Below are positions 897 to 16,175 of a stretch of DNA of 17,565 bases, piece by piece. The first letter of the stretch is position 1. Each line of letters opens with the position of its first letter. Both the position numbers and the translations under genes were made by a program. This DNA is from Bdellovibrionia bacterium. GTDB lineage: Bacteria; Bdellovibrionota; UBA1018. Below the pieces are notes generated by a model. The model saw only the letters and a list, made by a program, of their open reading frames with translations, did not search any database and had not been told where the DNA came from. The stretch is taken from NCBI GenBank assembly GCA_045805065.1, contig JBJMMA010000078.1, positions 1 through 17,565 of the forward strand, given 5' to 3'.

Positions 897-2351
897 TCAA
901 CTCGGAATCAAATTCCGAGACTTCAAAAGCTCCATCGCCGCATCATTTGCGTAAACGCTTGGGACAAAATTGCTGAAGCCCGAAAGATGCTTCATCAAAG
1001 AATTGTCGCGCTCGACCAGAAGCGATGGCTTTCCAGCCTTGGAGACGATCTTCACCGGATCACGCTCTTGATAGAGATTTTCGCTACCGCGTTTTTTCAC
1101 GATGTGGCTCACGCTGCGAGTAAAGACGACGTCTTTGTCTGGGACATCGGCCAATATCCAAGCCTTGCCCTTGCCAAACTTCTTGAGAACCCGCTCAAAC
1201 TCTTCGATCTTGGCGTGGATTTGCTTCAAGAGCTTTCCGCGCTCGGAGTCATCGCCGTTGGCTTGCAAAATCCGATGCGCAAAGATCGGGTGATGAACCG
1301 TCTTGGGAGGCTTACGGAAAAGAAGCATATGGATCAGCTCCGCAATGCGAGGGTCCTTTAGCTTCTTTTGAACCCGAAGCTCTTGGCAGCGGTTCATAAA
1401 GTAAATGTCATTGAAGAAGAAGAAACGCTCATCTCGCTCCTCAATCATATCCAAGAGGTCATGGAACTGATGGATCAGGCCCATATCGAGCAAGCCTGAA
1501 GCAATATGCGTTGCCATGATGTCAAACTTGGCTGAGCCCTGGTTTTTGATGACCTGGCTGTACCAGTGAAAGCGCGCGATCAGGAAGTCTTCAACCGCAT
1601 GAGCCGCGTTCTCGCGTACACCGAAAGCGACCTGGTTGTCACCGGCATCATAGGTCTGAAGATTTGCCATGATATATTCACGGTCAAACTGGCCATATTT
1701 AATGCCTGTGTAATGCGAATCGCGAAGGAGATAATCCATGCGATCGGCATCAAGGTCCGAGTGCATCAGCTGATTGGCAATGAGATGAGGGGAGTCACCC
1801 TTGATGATCTTGGAGATCATCTTTACGTCAAATCCGTAGTGCTCCAAAATCTGCGTGATGCCACCGTCGTAACGCGTGTTCTTGATAATGAAAGAGCCCA
1901 GATGCTCGTGAGAGTTCGGAAGCTTCTTCTTTTCGTCTTTACGAGTGGTACGAAGATCGTTGCCATGGCGAATGTACGCATTGTCAATCGCATGAGAGAA
2001 CGGAAACGTTCCGATGTCATGCAAAAGAGCCGCAATACGCAGGCTCTTATGCAGCATGGCCTCATCACTTTGCGCGCGTGGATCAAAAAGCTGATGATCC
2101 GGTACCGCTAGCCCAAGGCCTCGGACCATCTGATCCATCGAGTGCATGACCCCAATCACGTGCGCAAAGCGGTTATGCTCGGCGCCCGGGAAGATGTAGT
2201 TCGCAAACCCCAGCTGCTTGATCCAGCGCAGACGCTGGAAGAAGGGGGAGTTGATGATCTTCTCTTCCCATTCCGTGATCGGGATAAACCCGTACATCAC
2301 GTCATAAATTACATGCTGATTTCGGACCTGCTTTTGATTCGCGGCTTTCAC
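897..2351 (-). CDS. HD-domain phosphohydrolase, SAMHD1/YwfO-like (putative dNTP triphosphohydrolase family)
   Basis: Motifs FQRLRWIKQLG, PGAEHNRFAH, LLHDIG.FPFSH, HE and DADRMDYLLRD are present, with metal ligands H64, H111, D112 and D203. GTG start 3 nt after the thrS stop. Confidence 0.88.
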   Translation of the reverse strand: MKAANQKQVRNQHVIYDVMYGFIPITEWEEKIINSPFFQRLRWIKQLGFANYIFPGAEHNRFAHVIGVMHSMDQMVRGLGLAVPDHQLFDPRAQSDEAMLHKSLRIAALLHDIGTFPFSHAIDNAYIRHGNDLRTTRKDEKKKLPNSHEHLGSFIIKNTRYDGGITQILEHYGFDVKMISKIIKGDSPHLIANQLMHSDLDADRMDYLLRDSHYTGIKYGQFDREYIMANLQTYDAGDNQVAFGVRENAAHAVEDFLIARFHWYSQVIKNQGSAKFDIMATHIASGLLDMGLIHQFHDLLDMIEERDERFFFFNDIYFMNRCQELRVQKKLKDPRIAELIHMLLFRKPPKTVHHPIFAHRILQANGDDSERGKLLKQIHAKIEEFERVLKKFGKGKAWILADVPDKDVVFTRSVSHIVKKRGSENLYQERDPVKIVSKAGKPSLLVERDNSLMKHLSGFSNFVPSVYANDAAMELLKSRNLIPS

Positions 2352-2354
2352 GTA

Positions 2355-4181
2355 TTAAGCGTCCCGTGCAACTTTTTTCGGAACATCGTTGAGTTCACGG
2401 AAAAGCTCGAGAACTTCTGCGCGGGTCAGGACCTTGGATTCGCGCTCACCATACTTACGTACGGCAAACTGTCCTTGCTCCATCTCACGATCGCCTGCGA
2501 CCAGCGAGAACGGGATCTTTGCCATCTGCGCTTCGCGGGTCTTGAGGCCCATCGACTCATTACGAGAGTCAACATCCACACGGAAGCCCATGGATTTAAG
2601 CTCACGCTCAAATTGCTGGCAGTACTCGTTGTGAGAATCCTTGATCGGAACAAGGCGAGCTTGAACCGGAGCCAACCAGAACGGGAATGCACCGCCGACG
2701 TGCTCGGTGAGCACGCCAACGAAACGCTCGATCGAACCCAAGACCGCGCGATGGACCATCACAGGACGTTGAGCCGTATTATCAGCTGCCGTGTAGGTGA
2801 GATCAAAGCGCTCTGGAAGATTGAAGTCGAGTTGAATGGTCGAAAGCTGCCATGGGCGCTTCAGAGCATCCTTTACGATGAAGTCGATCTTTGGACCGTA
2901 AAAGGCGCCATCGCCTGGATTGATGGTGTAAGGGCGGCCAAGCTTATCGAGCGTTCTTCTCAAGCCCGCTTCTGCCTTATCCCAGACTTCTTCCGAGCCC
3001 ACGCGCTTCTCGGGACGCGTCGAGAGGAAGATCTGCATATCGGTGAAACCGAAAAGATCAAACGTTCCGAAGATCATCTTCACGACCTTCAGGATTTCTT
3101 CTTCGATCTGGTCTGGCGTACAGAAAACGTGCGCATCGTCCTGGCAGAAGCTGCGAACTCGGGTCAGGCCGTGCGTAGCGCCGGATTTTTCAAAGCGATG
3201 AAGGCGTCCGAAATCCGCCATCCGAAGTGGCAGATCACGATACGAGTGCTTGGTCGTATTGAAGAGCACGCAGTGGCTTGGGCAGTTCATGGGCTTGACG
3301 CCGAACTCGCGATTTTCGACTTCGGTGAAGTACATGCTCTCGACATAGTTGTCGTAGTGGCCCGACGTTTTCCAAAGCTGCACATCCAGGATCTGTGGCG
3401 TGATGACTTCAGAGTATCCGTACGGAACATAGAGATCGCGGATGTACTGAACGAGGCGATTATAGACAATCGCGCCTTTTGGATAGAAGAACGGAGCCGC
3501 AGGCGACTCTGGCAAGAAGGTGAAGAGCTCAAGCTCTTTGCCGAGTTTGCGGTGGTCGCGCTTTTTTGCTTCTTCAAGAAGGTGCAGATGCTCATCGAGC
3601 TCAGCCTTCGTCAAAAACGCAGCGCCATAAATCCGTTGAAGCTGTGGGTTCTTCTCGCTTCCGCGCCAGTAGGCGCCAGCGACAGAGAGAAGCTTGATGG
3701 CGCCCATCTCGGACGCTTTTTGAACGTGAGGGCCACGGCAAAGGTCGACGAAGTCGCCTTCCTTATACGTGCTCACGGATGTTGCCTTCATCTTATCGCG
3801 AAGGGTTTCAATGATCTCAATCTTGAATGGCTGACCGAGCTTCTTGAACATCTCAAGAGCTTCATCAATCGTGTGCTCTTCGCGGATGAAAGGCGCGCCG
3901 GACTTCACGATCTTTTTCATCTCCGCTTCGATCTTTGGCAGATCTTCCGGCGTGAGCTTATGAGCCATGTCGACGTCGTAATAGAAGCCGTTGTCGATGG
4001 TAGGGCCAATTCCAAACTTAGCATCCGGCCAGAGGCGTTGAATCGCGTGGGCCATGATGTGAGCAGCCGAGTGGCGCATGGTTTCGACTTCAGAATGGAT
4101 CTCCGGTTCACGGAAATCTTCTGGAAGTTCGACGTTTAATTCTTTTTCGGCTTGTGCCTGGGACGATTGGATTTGGCTCAT
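2355..4181 (-). CDS. thrS: Threonine--tRNA ligase (short form lacking N-terminal TGS domain)
   Basis: Editing domain RHSAAH...DLCRGPHV, RDHRKLG, Zn ligands KPMNCP / LHRFE / MVHRA, GDGAFYGPKID, and FPFWLAPVQ leading into the anticodon domain. Confidence 0.98.
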   Translation of the reverse strand: MSQIQSSQAQAEKELNVELPEDFREPEIHSEVETMRHSAAHIMAHAIQRLWPDAKFGIGPTIDNGFYYDVDMAHKLTPEDLPKIEAEMKKIVKSGAPFIREEHTIDEALEMFKKLGQPFKIEIIETLRDKMKATSVSTYKEGDFVDLCRGPHVQKASEMGAIKLLSVAGAYWRGSEKNPQLQRIYGAAFLTKAELDEHLHLLEEAKKRDHRKLGKELELFTFLPESPAAPFFYPKGAIVYNRLVQYIRDLYVPYGYSEVITPQILDVQLWKTSGHYDNYVESMYFTEVENREFGVKPMNCPSHCVLFNTTKHSYRDLPLRMADFGRLHRFEKSGATHGLTRVRSFCQDDAHVFCTPDQIEEEILKVVKMIFGTFDLFGFTDMQIFLSTRPEKRVGSEEVWDKAEAGLRRTLDKLGRPYTINPGDGAFYGPKIDFIVKDALKRPWQLSTIQLDFNLPERFDLTYTAADNTAQRPVMVHRAVLGSIERFVGVLTEHVGGAFPFWLAPVQARLVPIKDSHNEYCQQFERELKSMGFRVDVDSRNESMGLKTREAQMAKIPFSLVAGDREMEQGQFAVRKYGERESKVLTRAEVLELFRELNDVPKKVARDA

Positions 4182-4364: not shown

Positions 4365-5738
4365 ATGAAAATGAGATCAGTAGTCGTTAGATCAGCAATC
4401 GGAAGCTTAACGGTCATGGGCATTTTAGCCGGTTTTCAATCCTGTAAAGTGGCCCGAAGCGAACTTGTGAAGGCCCCGGACCAAAAGCAAGAAATGCCAG
4501 GCAAACAGGTGGTACCGAGTAATCAGGAAATTCTGAGTAAACAAGAAGGGCCTGTCTCGGCGGCCTTAAAAATGGATTTTTACCTGGCGGATGAAGGTAG
4601 CTCCGTACCTAACTTTAATCGTCCTGCACCTTCAAATCTCATGGAAGGGCTCTTGCGGGATGGAAGTGGATATCAGCTGAAAAAGAGAGTGCCTTTGGGC
4701 TCTGAAAAACTCTTTTTTGGGATTTCAGAAGGAGTAGGAAATCAGCGAATTGTAGATGCCTCTTATGAGTATCATGTTCTTTCCGAGTCGAATCAGACCA
4801 AAGGAGACATGCATCGAGCGCTCCTGGCCTATGATCCAGATCATCGCCAGTATTTCCTTTCCTTGGATCAGCTTTCCAAGGACCGAAACCAGAGATTGAG
4901 TTCGATGGATCTTCAGGTTTTGACTCTGGCTCTAAGGCATCAAGATGGGTCGATATCTCATGCAGAGATTCGCTTTTTAGTGAAAGCGCCGCTTCCATCG
5001 GCCGAGCAGATTCGAGTCTCCCAGGTTTTTCATGAGTCTAAAGGAGATCATGTGGATGCTGGAAAGACGATTTGGACAGTTTTAACGGAGCGTTACACGA
5101 ATCCCACGTCCCAACCGCTTTATCTTGAGTTTTCTTCAGCAGGCGTATCTTACCAGCTTGCGACAGAGCTGGGGGTTAAGCTCAATTGGGGAGACGTTTT
5201 GCCCGCATATCGTCCGGCCACGGAAGATGGCTTTGAGCCCGACCTTCATCGAATTTCTCTCGCTCCTCTAAACAGAGTGACTCTCGTTTTCAAGGATCTA
5301 AAAGGCGAGACGTTCAAGACGATGGGGGTGAGTTCTGCGATTTCGTTTCCAATGGAGATCCTTCCGGGTCAGACCTTCGATGTCGATTGGAAAGTCAAAG
5401 TCGGGAGCGACGCCGAGCCCTGTCCTCGGGGAGAGCGGTTTACTCGCACGGTCTGGGGCTGCGATACAACAGTCCCGGGCGAATCCTTTAGTCGCAAACC
5501 GTGGCCAGCATGCCGGCGTCCTCAAGGAGAGTTCGCAGCATTTAAGGAACCTATTGAATTGGATGGAGGATGGTTTCCTCAGCACTACCGAGTCGTCGGA
5601 GAATTCAAAAATACTGTGAGGGTCACCGACGATATCGAACTCGACGCGCAGGAGCTTTTGATTCGGACTTCCAAGCCCAGCGAGCCTTTAGATCCAAGCG
5701 TTGAGAAGTATTCCTGCCAGGGTTACTTCATGAAATGA
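4365..5738 (+). CDS. Hypothetical lipoprotein
   Basis: 457-aa ORF with RBS, basic N-terminus, hydrophobic stretch and lipobox AGFQSC (Cys27). Four further Cys in the C-terminal part. No family recognised. Confidence 0.8.
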   Translation: MKMRSVVVRSAIGSLTVMGILAGFQSCKVARSELVKAPDQKQEMPGKQVVPSNQEILSKQEGPVSAALKMDFYLADEGSSVPNFNRPAPSNLMEGLLRDGSGYQLKKRVPLGSEKLFFGISEGVGNQRIVDASYEYHVLSESNQTKGDMHRALLAYDPDHRQYFLSLDQLSKDRNQRLSSMDLQVLTLALRHQDGSISHAEIRFLVKAPLPSAEQIRVSQVFHESKGDHVDAGKTIWTVLTERYTNPTSQPLYLEFSSAGVSYQLATELGVKLNWGDVLPAYRPATEDGFEPDLHRISLAPLNRVTLVFKDLKGETFKTMGVSSAISFPMEILPGQTFDVDWKVKVGSDAEPCPRGERFTRTVWGCDTTVPGESFSRKPWPACRRPQGEFAAFKEPIELDGGWFPQHYRVVGEFKNTVRVTDDIELDAQELLIRTSKPSEPLDPSVEKYSCQGYFMK

Positions 5739-7199: not shown

Positions 7200-7637
7200 A
7201 TGTACGAACTCCGTGTGAAGGTTGATTTCCCCGCCGCTCACCACCTGACTGGCTATCCGGGCGACTGCGCTCGTCCCCATGGACATAACTGGGTGCTCGA
7301 GGTTTACGCTCGCTCAACGAAGCTGGATTCCATCGGAATGGCGATGGATTTCCGCGATCTCAAGAAGGCAGCAAAAGAACTTGTGGCGCCTTGGGACCAT
7401 CAGGATTTGAATCTTCTGGATGACTTCAAGACGATCAATCCATCGGCAGAAGCGATCGCGCGCCTTTCTTATGAGCGCTTGGCGAACTTACTCGATGGGG
7501 CTGAAACCTGGGTCGATAAAGTCACGATCTGGGAAAACGAACGCTGCTCGGCGACCTATTATGGTGAGCGCTCGATTGAGCGTTTAAGCCAAAAGCTCAT
7601 TGCCCAAGACAACGCTCGGGCGTCGAATAAGGCTTAA
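7200..7637 (+). CDS. queD: 6-carboxy-5,6,7,8-tetrahydropterin synthase
   Basis: FPAAH.L...C-x3-HGHNW, DH..LN, PSAE.IA and WE motifs; adjacent to queC. Confidence 0.93.
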   Translation: MYELRVKVDFPAAHHLTGYPGDCARPHGHNWVLEVYARSTKLDSIGMAMDFRDLKKAAKELVAPWDHQDLNLLDDFKTINPSAEAIARLSYERLANLLDGAETWVDKVTIWENERCSATYYGERSIERLSQKLIAQDNARASNKA

Positions 7638-7648
7638 GGAGCACGCTC

Positions 7649-8329
7649 ATGCGTCAGCCTTCAGTCATTCTTTTATCGGGTGGGCTTGACTCGACCGCGA
7701 ACCTTGCTTTTGCTTGCGAGTATGACGAGCCAGTCTTGGCTCTTACGATTCGTTACGGTCAGCGCGCGGCAGAGCGTGAGGTGATCGCGGCTCGTGGTCT
7801 TTGCGAGTATTACGGAGTTGAGCACCAGGTGATGGATCTCTCCTGGCTGGGTGCTTTGGGCGGAAGCTCTTTGACCCAGAGCTCGATGTCGGTTCCAGAG
7901 CTGAAGACCTCCGAGCTGGATGATCTTTCTGTGATTCAAGACACGGCAAAATCCGTTTGGGTTCCAAACCGTAACGGCGTTTTCATCAACGTTGCCGCAG
8001 CCTGGGCCGAACGTCGCGGAGCCAAGCGCGTGGTCGTTGGATTTAACCGCGAAGAGGCAACGACCTTCCCGGATAATTCGATCGATTTTTTGAATCGCTC
8101 GACGCGCTCCCTGGAACTCTCCACCGCCAATCATGTCGAAGTGTTCTGCTACACGGCTGCATGGGATAAGCGCGAGATTGTTCGCGAGCTTGAAAAACTT
8201 TCCAAGCCCTTTCCGTTTGAAAAGGTTTGGAGCTGCTACATGGGAGGCGAGACGGCTTGCGGAAAATGCGAATCTTGCCAACGTCTGTCGCGCGCGCTTT
8301 CGGTTCGCACCGGGAATAAAGGGGCTTAA
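7649..8329 (+). CDS. queC: 7-cyano-7-deazaguanine (preQ0) synthase
   Basis: PP-loop SGGLDS, YGQR, VP.RN, FPD, and C-terminal Zn motif SCY-x6-CGKCESC; AAGGAG RBS. Confidence 0.95.
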   Translation: MRQPSVILLSGGLDSTANLAFACEYDEPVLALTIRYGQRAAEREVIAARGLCEYYGVEHQVMDLSWLGALGGSSLTQSSMSVPELKTSELDDLSVIQDTAKSVWVPNRNGVFINVAAAWAERRGAKRVVVGFNREEATTFPDNSIDFLNRSTRSLELSTANHVEVFCYTAAWDKREIVRELEKLSKPFPFEKVWSCYMGGETACGKCESCQRLSRALSVRTGNKGA

Positions 8330-8332
8330 ATA

Positions 8333-8926
8333 GTGAATACTTCTCTGACGACCTTGTTTTCCAAGACAGAGCGAACCTATACAGGCCCTGAGCTCAGACC
8401 TCATTTTTTGCTTACCGAGCTCAAGCTTGAAGGATCAGGGATTGGCGCTTTCATCGGCCCGTGCCGAGTCGAGACCGCTCATCTCGTCGATTGGGAAGAT
8501 CGCCTGGCCAATGACCGGATCGAAGCCAAGAAGATGGTTCATTTCATTGGGGAGTTCTTTGGCGCCTCTCTTCGTGAGGGCGTTTTGATTCAAAGACTTT
8601 TCATGGCCAACGCTTTTGATACGCTCCGAGAAAGGCTTGAAGCTTCGGGCAAGTTTGGAGTGCTGCGCCGCGATGGGGATGATCTTTTTGTTCGGGGTGA
8701 AAAAGGGGAGCGAAAGCTCTCTGTATCGATCGTGACCGCATCCCCGGTCTCGCAGCTTCTTCATGCGGGAATTAATATCGACCCAACCGGCGCTCCTGTG
8801 CCGGCAGTTGGGCTGGCTGAACTTGGCGTGGATCCTACGGAATGGGTCCCAGCTCTTCTCGAGCGCTTTGCGAAGGAATGGAAAGGCATGGAGTGGGCTT
8901 GCGTGAAAGTCCGTCCCGTGGTGTAG
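8333..8926 (+). CDS. DUF366 family protein (PH0223-like)
   Basis: Y.G.EL..HF, F.GPC.V....VD.ED, M.HFI.E.F, QRL, R.GDDL...RKLSVSI.T, H.GINI and K.R.V at the C-terminus match my recollection of DUF366. GTG start 3 nt after the queC stop. Confidence 0.82.
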   Translation: MNTSLTTLFSKTERTYTGPELRPHFLLTELKLEGSGIGAFIGPCRVETAHLVDWEDRLANDRIEAKKMVHFIGEFFGASLREGVLIQRLFMANAFDTLRERLEASGKFGVLRRDGDDLFVRGEKGERKLSVSIVTASPVSQLLHAGINIDPTGAPVPAVGLAELGVDPTEWVPALLERFAKEWKGMEWACVKVRPVV

Positions 8927-13242: not shown

Positions 13243-14103
13243 ATGGGCTCGAGAGTCGTTCTTCGACTATATCCACTTTTTTTAGCCTGTTTGCTCAGCG
13301 TCGCTCCGCTCGTCGCTGCTCGCGCGCAGGATGAGATCAGCTCTCGGCTGATTGAGGATGTGAAAAGTACAGTCGAAGAAATCGCGAAGCTGCATCCTCC
13401 TGAGGAGTCTTACTATATTGGAATCGGGGGGAGTCCAACGCCTGTCATTGCTTTGATGCAAGAAGCAGGACTCTCTGCGGCAAACGTCCCGGCTTCTCGA
13501 AGTGGAGCGCTAGTCGGTGTAGCGAAAAATAATGCTCAGTATCACGAGAATCTATTTCGACATCTCGATCAATTTATTCCCAAGCCGGAAGTGTTGGGAA
13601 ATCGAAAATTAGTGGTGATGGATTTTACGTATAGTGGCGCCTCGTTAATGAATTTCAAAGACGCGTTGGAATACTATTTCAAAGAGCGTGGTTTGCATCT
13701 TCCCCATCAATTTGTGGCTCTCAGGTCAAGCCAAACTCAAGGTCAATATCTTGAAGAAGGTGTCCAACACATCTATTTGCCTAAATATCTCGAGGAAGTA
13801 TTGTCGAATAACTCTGGGTTTAAGCAAGTGTATCGGGAATACGATTCTTGGGAAGCGTCAAAGACACAGGCGTACCGGCCACCGCAGCAACGAGCGCGGT
13901 ATCTTGAATTGCGAGCACGCTTTGGTTTAGCCTTGAGGCAAGATCCAAAGTTTTTAGAGCGTATCAAACGGACTCATTTTGTTCGTCCTCAACATGAAAA
14001 TGTGAACATGACTACGAATGCGGATACGAGTGGGAATACGGGTTCTAGAGAGAAGCGAGGCTGCGTTATTGGGTTTCTCAGACGTATCTTTACGAAGCGT
14101 TAG
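13243..14103 (+). CDS. Hypothetical secreted protein with a PRTase-like motif
   Basis: 286 aa with a Sec-type signal (…LVAARA-QD), YYIGIGGSP and LVVMDFTYSGASL. The last resembles the type I PRTase PRPP-binding loop. Confidence 0.7.
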   Translation: MGSRVVLRLYPLFLACLLSVAPLVAARAQDEISSRLIEDVKSTVEEIAKLHPPEESYYIGIGGSPTPVIALMQEAGLSAANVPASRSGALVGVAKNNAQYHENLFRHLDQFIPKPEVLGNRKLVVMDFTYSGASLMNFKDALEYYFKERGLHLPHQFVALRSSQTQGQYLEEGVQHIYLPKYLEEVLSNNSGFKQVYREYDSWEASKTQAYRPPQQRARYLELRARFGLALRQDPKFLERIKRTHFVRPQHENVNMTTNADTSGNTGSREKRGCVIGFLRRIFTKR

Positions 14104-14213: not shown

Positions 14214-16175
14214 GTGAGCTCAAAAGAACCTTCCGCAACCAAGCCTACTTTTATCCCACCTACAGACGTCGCTGGCGTCTTAAAGCAGATCAAGCGACCT
14301 GAGAAAGCGGTCGTCACGGCAGGCATGCCTTACGCCAACGGCCCTCTTCACATTGGGCATCTGGCTGGTGCGCATGTTCCAGCGGATATTTATTCCCGGT
14401 GGCTGGGGCTTTTGATCGGACGAAAGAACGTTCTTTTTGTGAACGGAACCGATGACCACGGCTCGACGAGCGAAGTCGCAGCTCTCAAAGCCGGTCTCCC
14501 CATGCGCGAGTTCATCGATGGCATTCACGTCAAGCAGCGCGAGACGTTGAAGCGTTATTCGATCGGCGTCGACACCTACACGGGAACCTCGCGCCCGGAA
14601 TGCTTTCCAGCTCACAAGGAGCTCGCACAAGATTTTATCCGTAAGCTTTACAAGAACGGCATGCTCGAAAAGCGCAAAAGCATGCAGTGGTACGATACGA
14701 CTCTCAATCGCTTTCTCCCAGACCGCTACGTGAAGGGGAAATGCCCAAATCCTGCTTGCGATAACGAGAGCGCCTACAGTGACGAGTGCGATAAGTGCGG
14801 GTCGCAGTACGATCCATCGCAGCTTGGAAATCCCAAGAGCGCGATCAGTGATTCGGTTCCTGTGATGAAGGAGACGGTCCACTGGTGGCTCGATATGTGG
14901 AAGGTCTCGGACGTCCTTCGCGTTTGGATCCAAAGCAAAGAAGGCACGTGGCGTAAGCCAGTTCTGGCTGAAGTCCTTGGAACGGTTCTTCCGACTGCCT
15001 CCTTCGATGCGGCTCTTGAGCCTCAGTATAAAGAGATGAAGGCGCAGCTTCCAAAGCATAAGCCACGCTATGCTCCGGGCAAAAAGATCGCGCTTCAGTT
15101 CGAGTCAAAAGACGAAATGAACAAGGGTAGGGAGATGCTCAAGGCTCAAGGCATTGAAACGGCTCTTGTCGACGCTTGGGCACATCGCTCGATCACCCGT
15201 GACGTTTCCTGGGGTATCCCGCTTCCTGTGGAGCTTGATCCGGATATGGCCGGCAAGACGCTTTACGTCTGGCCGGATTCCTTGATCGCTCCGATCTCAT
15301 TCTCAAAAGTCGCATTGAAAGAATCGGGACGTGATCCAGAGATGTACGCTGAGTTTTGGCGCAATCCAAACGCTAAGGTTTATCAGTTCCTCGGCCAGGA
15401 TAACGTTTTCTTCTACGTCATCATGCAAGGCGCGATGTGGCTTGGAACTCAGGAAGACCCAATGAGACTTCCTCAGGCGGGCGAGTTGCAACTGACTGAC
15501 ATCTTTGGATGCTTCCATCTCCAAGTCAACGGCGAGAAGATGAGTAAGTCTCGCGGCAATTTCTATAGCGGCGATCAGCTTCTCGAGGAGAAGGGCTACA
15601 CGGCCGATCAGATTCGTTACTTCTTGGCAACTTTGAGCTTGCCTGAGAAGGCTTCGAATTTTGATTTCGCGACTCTCGATGAGCGTAACAAATTCTTGGC
15701 TGGCCCAATGAACGCGGCCTTTGAAAAGCCGATTTCTGCTTGCCACTCGAAGTTTGGCGGAAAGATTCCAGAAGGCGTTCTGAACGAGAAGGTTGTTCAA
15801 GAGACGCTTCAGGTCGTGCGCCGATATGTCAAAGGCATGGATCGTTCCGAGTACTCCAATCTCTTGGGCGCGATCGAAAACTACGCACGCTCGATCAACA
15901 GCATGTTCACGCAGTTCAAGCCGCATGACGATCGCTTCCCAGAAGAAGCTCGCAAGAACGCGCTTTACACCTGCTTCTATGTTCTCAAGAACATCATGAT
16001 CATGCTCTATCCATTTGTCCCTGAGACGATGGATCGCCTCCGTCAGTCGCTGAGACTTCCAAAGGAAGTCTTTACGATTGATGAACTGGGTAAGCCAATT
16101 CCTGGCGGTCATGAGATTGGTGAGAAGCTTCAGTATTTCCCGGCGGTGGCTGGGGCGGAAGTGGGCGAGGCTTAA
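14214..16175 (+). CDS. metG: Methionine--tRNA ligase-like class Ia synthetase with divergent amino-acid and anticodon pockets
   Basis: PYANG.LHIGH, D.HG, FL.DRYV.G.CP...C...D.C..CG Zn knuckle, ITRD..WGIP.P, LYVW.D, G.DN, KMSKS, D..RY.L and helical anticodon bundle (P..PET). No C-terminal tRNA-binding appendix. The MetRS family is certain; Met specificity is doubtful (see findings). Confidence 0.85.
   Translation: MSSKEPSATKPTFIPPTDVAGVLKQIKRPEKAVVTAGMPYANGPLHIGHLAGAHVPADIYSRWLGLLIGRKNVLFVNGTDDHGSTSEVAALKAGLPMREFIDGIHVKQRETLKRYSIGVDTYTGTSRPECFPAHKELAQDFIRKLYKNGMLEKRKSMQWYDTTLNRFLPDRYVKGKCPNPACDNESAYSDECDKCGSQYDPSQLGNPKSAISDSVPVMKETVHWWLDMWKVSDVLRVWIQSKEGTWRKPVLAEVLGTVLPTASFDAALEPQYKEMKAQLPKHKPRYAPGKKIALQFESKDEMNKGREMLKAQGIETALVDAWAHRSITRDVSWGIPLPVELDPDMAGKTLYVWPDSLIAPISFSKVALKESGRDPEMYAEFWRNPNAKVYQFLGQDNVFFYVIMQGAMWLGTQEDPMRLPQAGELQLTDIFGCFHLQVNGEKMSKSRGNFYSGDQLLEEKGYTADQIRYFLATLSLPEKASNFDFATLDERNKFLAGPMNAAFEKPISACHSKFGGKIPEGVLNEKVVQETLQVVRRYVKGMDRSEYSNLLGAIENYARSINSMFTQFKPHDDRFPEEARKNALYTCFYVLKNIMIMLYPFVPETMDRLRQSLRLPKEVFTIDELGKPIPGGHEIGEKLQYFPAVAGAEVGEA

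Follow-up and report, generated by a model that had tools for sequence, protein, structure and literature searches.

Which amino acid and which tRNA does a second protein resembling methionyl-tRNA synthetase (MetRS) serve in a bacterium that already encodes a canonical MetRS? The question is raised by a gene on contig JBJMMA010000078.1 of a Bdellovibrionia bacterium (assembly GCA_045805065.1), of which the whole 17,565-nucleotide stretch analysed is called the window here. The gene lies at positions 14214..16175 on the forward (+) strand, is read from a GTG start and encodes a 653-residue MetRS-like protein, hereafter the paralog, a predicted glutaminyl-tRNA synthetase (GlnRS) of MetRS descent. 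Indeed, we hold it quite probable that the paralog is a MetRS-derived enzyme making Gln-tRNA(Gln) directly, its anticodon site having been re-tooled from CAU to YUG.

The paralog is a MetRS fold with an intact catalytic apparatus. Its sequence matches the MetRS catalytic family PF09334 of Pfam with an E-value of 7e-93, in two stretches parted by an insertion, and its score with the Pfam anticodon-domain model is under the cut-off of that model. The MetRS equivalog models of NCBIfam scored on it (NF001100, TIGR00398 and NF008900) all remain below their curated cut-offs (363.8 vs 587, 295.5 vs 336.35 and 132.5 vs 598). The closest solved relative is the P. abyssi MetRS 1rqg (E 2.7e-67; the alignment covers residues 33-251 and 322-637), and the same structure is the top Foldseek match (TM 0.77/0.82) of an AlphaFold model built from 76 sequences with a predicted local distance difference test (pLDDT) value of 94.4, MetRS structures overall being matched at TMq 0.72-0.77. 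The catalytic residues retained are HIGH (46-49), KMSKS (442-446), D80 (equivalent to D52, the alpha-amino-binding Asp), Y40 and W353. Nevertheless the paralog is not the cell's MetRS; a canonical MetRS of 536 residues sits on contig C30 of the same genome (C30:17679-19289).

The anticodon-binding part of the paralog departs from that of MetRS at the very residues that read the anticodon. According to Table 4 of PMC10535265, the base-specific readers of the tRNA-Met anticodon in E. coli MetRS are N391, R395 and W461. The initial annotation of the window had proposed, from two strings of the protein, that these readers are replaced by A501, K505 and H571, and both strings are found as it gave them. 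The first is the anticodon-domain helix ERNKFLAGPMNAAFEKP, residues 490-506 (15681..15731, +), in which A501 and K505 stand in place of the CAU-reading Asn and Arg. The second, ARSINSMFTQFKPHDD, spans residues 558-573 (nucleotides 15885-15932 of the open reading frame 14214-16175, +) and overlaps the FKPHDDR loop (15915..15935, +), where H571 replaces the Trp of the PW motif. HMMER alignments to four solved MetRS (P. abyssi 1rqg, A. aeolicus 2csx, Brucella 4dlp and T. thermophilus 1a8h) agree in aligning A501 and K505 with the Asn and the Arg, respectively, of the N...R helix, and H571 with the Trp of PW; the canonical MetRS of the same genome, which has GNLVNR and KPW at the corresponding sites, gives the same mapping to N391, R395 and W461. 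The neighbouring anchors that had been described as kept, ARxxN and FGGKIP, are present as well.

Residue conservation was followed in the 121 closest relatives, which show 62-92% pairwise identity. A501 is found in 118/121, K505 in 115/121 and H571 in 121/121 of them, and the flanking KPHDDR (K569, P570, H571, D572, D573 and R574) is invariant. Since the three replacements are kept across these relatives, they are not drift. Furthermore, the anticodon domain is constrained like the catalytic core (51/136 positions invariant), and it is net positive in 5/5 representatives of what we call family A, that is the paralog and its relatives of 62-95% identity, which come mainly from Bdellovibrionota (Bdellovibrio, Bacteriovorax, Halobacteriovorax, Oligoflexia) and are annotated in databases as 'methionine--tRNA ligase' or 'class I tRNA ligase family protein'. 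Judged from these sequences, a reading of tRNA-Met(CAU) by the paralog is very unlikely, which supports what the initial annotation had supposed.

The pocket for the amino acid has changed as well. L13, Y260 and H301 are the three pocket residues that were mutated to re-target E. coli MetRS (PMC4453564). In the paralog M38 stands at the L13 site, within GMPYANGPLHIGH (14322..14360, +), where Y40 (Y15 of E. coli MetRS) and the HIGH residues H46-H49 are kept according to the alignments; M38 is found in 120/121 relatives and HxGH is invariant save for one gapped row. In YVWPDSLIAPISF (15264..15302, +) the alignments show W353 (W253) kept with extra residues behind it, and F363 in place of MetRS Y260; Y351, V352, W353, P354, S356, L357, A359, P360, I361 and F363 are invariant in 121/121 relatives, D355 and I358 are found in 119/121 and S362 in 98/121. 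In GQDNVFFYVIMQG (15393..15431, +) Q395 is aligned with K295, Y401 with H301 and Q405-G406 with W305-P306 of E. coli MetRS, and Q395, D396, N397, F400, Y401, M404 and Q405 are invariant in 121/121 relatives; N397, which stands for I297, is no true difference, as archaeal-type MetRS also has KDN. Altogether, L13/Y260/H301/W305 of the methionine pocket have become M38/F363/Y401/Q405, invariant in 120-121/121 relatives. To go by its residues, a pocket with no Arg or Lys for a carboxylate would mildly favour glutamine over glutamate. The idea that pocket and tRNA specificity changed together is supported, and this part of the initial annotation was borne out.

The same annotation had offered a dedicated tRNA, a modified anticodon or a codon reassignment as the form of the new specificity, none of which was borne out in the host genome (4.2 Mb, 262 contigs, 94% complete), where tRNAs, TilS and class I synthetases are all ordinary. 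ARAGORN finds 44 tRNAs and the transfer-messenger RNA, with no odd anticodon, so that the proposed inventory of unusual anticodons came back empty; the three CAU tRNAs resemble, by eye, the initiator, the elongator Met and Ile2. TilS, for which a check had been suggested, is present, as are AspRS, LysRS, AsnRS, GluRS, a GluQRS-like and an EpmA-like protein, CysRS, ArgRS, TyrRS/TrpRS and GatB. We rejected the idea that the paralog fills in for a missing class I synthetase, as the searches recovered MetRS, LeuRS, two of the Ile/Val type, CysRS (its gene split across the ends of two contigs), ArgRS, TyrRS/TrpRS and GluRS. The translation apparatus of the host is thus ordinary and nothing is missing there that the paralog must replace; GlnRS was not found in this genome by profile search, PF00749 matching only GluRS and the GluQRS-like gene, and GatB is present. 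It is extremely improbable, in our view, that the paralog works with a reassigned codon or with a dedicated tRNA of a non-standard kind: the change in both the amino-acid and the anticodon site would suit such a role, but the tRNA repertoire is a standard one in which neither an additional tRNA nor an odd anticodon occurs, TilS is accompanied by an Ile2-like CAU tRNA, and the tRNA-Gln of genomes with the paralog as their only route matches that of genomes with GlnRS.

Some features of these genes were noted in passing. Only tRNA-Lys(CUU) was found in the host and UUU was not, which is probably an assembly gap given 94% completeness and 262 contigs. The type of the canonical MetRS varies, with 536 residues in the host and 686-709 in the Bdellovibrio genomes G001-G005, between which the paralog is 64% identical. 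The EpmA/GenX-like protein (C126:6526-8097, 523 residues) carries an N-terminal extension of ~170 residues and scores over the TIGR00462 cut-off, and the GluQRS-like protein (C40:24160-25077, 304 residues) is under all GluQRS cut-offs.

The accepted routes to Gln-tRNA(Gln) are GlnRS, a late offshoot of GluRS, and the transamidation of Glu-tRNA(Gln) by GatCAB or GatDE. The distribution of the paralog was compared with these routes in one sample of 301 genomes drawn evenly from the phylum, to which all distribution counts refer, the paralog being called at E 1e-120 or better and GlnRS with TIGR00440. The paralog is an accessory gene, patchy even inside Bdellovibrio, which is found in 91/301 genomes and in 85/258 of high quality, and GlnRS is found in 58/301. 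The two never occur together, as 0/149 genomes carry both (91 vs 58, no overlap). Moreover, they alternate within at least six genera (paralog/GlnRS: g97 8/8 plus 2 with neither, g55 2/7, g56 1/3, and g1, g10 and g12 1/1 each), and the sole other sampled genome of the window's genus has GlnRS and no paralog. The possibility that the paralog is still a MetRS, a second one that is stress-specific or inhibitor-resistant and reads CAU differently, has to be weighed against this pattern. Its overall MetRS fold, the intact HIGH and KMSKS and an initiator tRNA-fMet lying ~100-260 nucleotides upstream in four Bdellovibrio loci would agree with such a role; however, the three sulfur- and shape-determining pocket residues and the three CAU readers are all replaced by other invariant residues, and the distribution tracks GlnRS and not MetRS, a metG match over the cut-off being found in 285/301 genomes whether the paralog is present or not. 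We consider this role highly improbable.

The strongest contrast is found in one family of the phylum, f21. GatB is present in 231/301 genomes but in only 9/67 of this family, whose 67 genomes comprise 45 with the paralog only, 13 with GlnRS only and 7 with GatB only; 0 lack all three, and a weak GatB_N match is additionally present in one paralog and one GlnRS genome. These weak matches (G296 and G299, E ~1e-47 vs ~1e-120 elsewhere) may be remnants or a different GatB_N-containing protein. Twenty f21 paralog-only genomes of 93-99% completeness and 1-30 contigs were checked closely. Exactly one PF00749 protein of GluRS size (476-511 residues) is found in 20/20 and a short GluQRS-like one also in 7/20; AsnRS is present in 20/20, and GatA over the cut-off in 0/20, one amidase scoring below. 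These genomes have the direct route to Asn-tRNA and, apart from the paralog, no route to Gln-tRNA(Gln) that we could recognise. A non-tRNA acceptor, the other possibility raised by the initial annotation, finds no support; it would leave them with no Gln-tRNA(Gln) route at all.

The tRNA-Gln genes of this family were searched by pattern in 16 genomes, namely 8 of the 20 paralog-only, 4 GlnRS-only and 4 GatB-only ones. The tRNA-Gln(UUG) gene was recovered in 6/8, 2/4 and 0/4 of them, respectively, and the recovered genes are nearly identical. We rejected a specificity for tRNA-Gln(CUG) alone: the pattern for this tRNA occurs in 26/301 genomes and in none of the paralog-holding families f20, f21, f15 and f3, although divergent tRNAs could escape the pattern. 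A BLAST search with a 74-nucleotide tRNA-Gln against five Bdellovibrio genomes gave no match and is uninformative. MetRS and the paralog are both present in 5/5 Bdellovibrio genomes, a biased sample because the genomes were found through the paralog. The identification of EP01_RS06555 / RS06560 as the paralog in the transposon-sequencing (Tn-seq) data of B. bacteriovorus 109J (PMC6561027 supplement) was withdrawn, no row being so annotated; 109J has GlnRS and is therefore probably without the paralog.

Since GatCAB is absent in f21, direct glutaminylation is to be preferred to glutamylation. A paralog that charges tRNA-Gln with glutamate, in the manner of Helicobacter GluRS2, and thereby feeds an amidotransferase seems decidedly unlikely to us, even if gltX is adjacent in family A and in the sister family B described below, if GatB occurs in the host genome and in 45/91 paralog genomes, and if a MetRS-like scaffold can activate glutamate in the hydrazine synthetase PyrN (10.1101/2025.08.22.671884). 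Indeed, 46/91 paralog genomes have no GatB match, and this together with GatA in 0/20 departs from the co-occurrence with GatCAB expected of a GluRS2-type enzyme. In the 45 f21 paralog genomes without a GatB match, Glu-tRNA(Gln) would be unconvertible and toxic. Moreover, no conserved Arg or Lys is found at the places where PyrN binds the gamma-carboxylate.

Direct formation of Gln-tRNA(Gln) by the paralog is also in keeping with its surroundings. The gene order gltX, paralog, tRNA-Gln(CUG) is found in loci L011, L048, L070 and L074 (in L048 and L074 gltX was called as two separate pieces), and the order gltX, glnS, tRNA-Gln(CUG), with glnS overlapping gltX by 4 nucleotides, in genome G265 of the window's own family; in G289 the end of glnS lies 70 nucleotides upstream of tRNA-Gln(CUG). 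The paralog occupies the slot of glnS between gltX and tRNA-Gln(CUG). In the host itself gltX (C39:6424-8028) is followed by tRNA-Gln(CUG) 73 nucleotides downstream, and relatives have glnS or the paralog between the two. Overall, tRNA-Gln(CUG) is found ~50-110 nucleotides downstream of the paralog in 9/80 family-A loci, all from the window's own family, and gltX is directly adjacent to and co-oriented with the paralog in 6 family-A loci, at distances of -45 to 66 nucleotides. For family B, gltX adjoins the gene in 17/76 metagenome loci, in both gene orders, and mnmA does so in one lineage (11 loci). Neighbours in the 73 family-A and 76 family-B loci include gltX, relA/spoT, gmk, prfC, rimP/nusA, a rhodanese/TrhO-like gene and mnmA. 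Besides gltX no conserved operon partner was found, every other neighbour occurring in at most 12/73 loci, and no biosynthetic-cluster context was seen around the paralog or family B in the loci examined. In the four Bdellovibrio loci with a nearby initiator tRNA-fMet (L034, L035, L072 and L078) the tRNA lies on the same strand as the paralog, perhaps as chance synteny, and in other Bdellovibrio loci it is found 0.7-3.5 kilobases away.

The relatives of family A extend to a sister family. Family B (proteins P0134, P0138, P0140, P0150, P0218 and P0159; loci L099-L178) shows 25-30% identity to the paralog, comes from Oscillospiraceae/Ruminococcus, that is gut and rumen Clostridia, and shares with the paralog the insertion as well as the motifs WPESLWAPISFT and DNIYFY. 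In a FastTree tree whose other 59 rows are 58 MetRS-family matches and the host's own MetRS, with LeuRS as outgroup, family A (12 rows) groups with family B (8 rows plus three more) in a single clade, whose Shimodaira-Hasegawa (SH)-like support is 100. Family B has KxSSS in place of KMSKS, and its helix bundle is unconserved and mostly net negative. It may represent another branch whose role is that of the paralog or one derived from it. T-box leaders were found upstream of 0/10 family-B loci. Look-alike clusters of the ESM Atlas, matched by features only and not by alignment, are commonest in Actinomycetota and Bacillota, those in Actinomycetota being candidate relatives.

The insertion shared by both families comprises ~70 residues (252-321; 14967..15176, +) within the catalytic domain; it appears as a gap against solved MetRS, none of which has it, and predicted models give it a ferredoxin-like beta-alpha-beta-beta-alpha fold. 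Its structural matches in VIA-align are generic, the best (Z 9.6, 9.1 and 8.2) being a Pol II N-terminal subdomain and the ACT domain of TyrA, followed by KH/RRM at Z 6-7, which makes the fold a generic one. The KMSKS motif (K442-S446; 15537..15551, +) is intact, with K442, S444 and K445 in 121/121 and M443 and S446 in 120/121 relatives. A zinc knuckle, CPNPAC...CDKC, was read from the sequence in the connective-peptide domain (C177, C182, C192 and C195; 14742..14798, +), and C177, C182 and C192 are invariant in a 76-row alignment that includes canonical MetRS. By Pfam there is no cupin domain in the protein. A search of longer proteins at E 1e-30 or better gave no fused form, a weak piece of evidence, and PF00749 and TIGR00440, the GlnRS/GluRS sequence family, are not matched by the protein. 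A predicted complex of paralog residues 28-486 with the GluRS of the same genome scored 0.00, without controls, and counts neither way.

These features bear on the possibility that the exclusion with GlnRS is indirect, the paralog being another tRNA-linked or tRNA-independent ligase and some unrecognised enzyme making Gln-tRNA(Gln). The KxSSS of family B, to be compared with the KFSTG of hydrazine synthetases, its non-conserved and mostly negative helix bundle, the inserted ACT/RRM-like domain without a known role and the 8 sampled genomes without any of the three routes would all fit such a ligase. It is unlikely to us, however, as it needs a second unknown enzyme together with an unexplained perfect anticorrelation (0/149) that recurs in at least six genera, leaves the position of the paralog in the glnS slot unexplained, and has to contend with translation-gene neighbours, with the lack of biosynthetic-cluster context in the loci seen and with a protein in which no cupin or fusion was found.

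Non-orthologous displacement of GlnRS by a MetRS-derived class I enzyme is thus the reading we would propose as the most economical. Glutamine, which is near-isosteric with methionine, would be activated in the rebuilt side-chain pocket and moved onto ordinary tRNA-Gln, and the rebuilt helix-bundle site (A501, K505, H571, D572, D573 and R574) would read YUG, as in tRNA-Gln UUG and CUG, in place of CAU. In the host genome, with GatB present and GlnRS not found, the enzyme would work beside the GatCAB route. Such a displacement would explain why the CAU readers and the methionine determinants are both swapped for another invariant set, why the anticodon domain is still constrained and net positive, and why gltX and tRNA-Gln are neighbours. 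With somewhat more caution, we also think it likely that the paralog founds a new synthetase family, a GlnRS that arose from MetRS by changes in both sites, that an entire Bdellovibrionota family depends on it alone for Gln-tRNA(Gln), and that it amounts to a third solution to glutaminylation.

Several points weigh against this proposal. We infer the amino acid (glutamine rather than glutamate), the tRNA, the reading of bases by residues and the role of the inserted ferredoxin-like domain, and the pocket shows a residue set without a recognisable Gln-specific signature. In family B the second Lys of KMSKS is gone, as are the conserved anticodon-site residues, so that the clade is functionally non-uniform. 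The genome profile search scored only the best few first-look candidates, and an absence means that the protein was not found among those searched. The naive one-sided Fisher p of 5e-11 for the exclusion between paralog and GlnRS is overstated, since related genomes are not independent. GatB is also found in the 45/91 paralog genomes already mentioned, including the host, where the enzyme would be redundant; but 42/58 GlnRS genomes keep GatB as well. Finally, 8/301 genomes show none of the three routes, so that either detection is imperfect or another route exists; six of them are 65-97% complete (G024 97%, G027 91%, G020, G090, G134 and G139), and two further ones belong to family f17.

The remainder of the window holds genes of other kinds. 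A run of queD (PTPS family), queC and DUF366 at 7200-8926 forms a 7-deazaguanine/queuosine precursor cluster, which is followed by a hisC-like aminotransferase, cmk, a GT9 heptosyltransferase and a PfkB-family kinase. At 13243-14103 and 4365-5738 lie genes for two proteins that have no Pfam family and are predicted to be secreted or lipoprotein-like; the former lies just upstream of the paralog and is not conserved there in relatives. Long antisense open reading frames at 2142-4139 (+), 14280-15059 (-) and 15303-16112 (-), opposite thrS and the paralog, have no family support and were taken as composition artefacts. Rfam families gave no match in the window.

In the evolution of the genetic code, the synthesis of Gln-tRNA(Gln) is a textbook case, and a natural GlnRS derived from MetRS would, if true, provide a third way of glutaminylation. 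It would further stand as a rare instance in nature of a synthetase that changed both its amino acid and its anticodon, making the evolvability of specificity directly testable, would account for what looks like a gap in the translation machinery of dozens of genomes from predatory bacteria, would call for correction of the widespread annotation as 'methionine--tRNA ligase' or 'class I tRNA ligase family protein', and would offer synthetic biology a ready-made scaffold for orthogonal pairs. No description of the paralog family or of a MetRS-descended GlnRS was found in the literature, searched as full text with subscription journals outside its coverage.

Compared with canonical MetRS (P. abyssi 1rqg, E. 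coli 1qqt), the paralog shares the fold (TM 0.72-0.82), HIGH, KMSKS, the zinc knuckle, the alpha-amino-binding Asp and the helix-bundle C-terminal domain. In contrast, it has an extra domain of ~70 residues, a changed pocket (M, F, Y, Q) and changed readers (A, K, H), scores below the curated cut-offs, falls into a separate clade with family B and co-exists with a true MetRS. With GlnRS (class Ib, TIGR00440/PF00749) it shares the predicted function and the same operon position, and either can stand alone without GatCAB. The anticodon-binding domain of GlnRS is made of beta-barrels, whereas that of the paralog is a helix bundle; the paralog matches PF09334 and has no specific sequence relationship with GlnRS.

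Hydrazine synthetases (PyrN, Spb40 and Tri28, the 'paralogous MtRS' of Aravind) are another case of a MetRS scaffold re-targeted to a different amino acid, including glutamate, and PMC2922099 and 10.1101/2025.08.22.671884 describe them as MetRS-like domains with a cupin, a lysine N6-monooxygenase partner, a KFSTG motif, hydroxylamine as acceptor and a place in secondary metabolism. The C-domain of PyrN (9l8v) is found at Foldseek rank 16 for the paralog model (TMq 0.67). The paralog, however, has no cupin, keeps KMSKS intact and lies among housekeeping and translation genes, and the features that define hydrazine synthetases are not found in it. The likeness to the Helicobacter type (PMC3439900), where GluRS2 works with GatCAB, lies in a dedicated class I enzyme for tRNA-Gln besides the GluRS for tRNA-Glu; but GluRS2 is a GluRS paralog that needs GatCAB, whereas the enzyme described here is a paralog of MetRS and is found in 45 sampled genomes in which GatB was not matched.

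Confirmation of the proposed function would establish a new synthetase family, a class I enzyme with a new combination of ancestry and specificity. A known parallel is LysRS. Class I and class II LysRS are a non-orthologous pair, in which one aminoacylation function is carried by differently descended enzymes with complementary phyletic patterns. The paralog and GlnRS would likewise provide the same function from differently descended enzymes, with the difference that the swap made by the paralog, from MetRS to glutamine, stays within class I.

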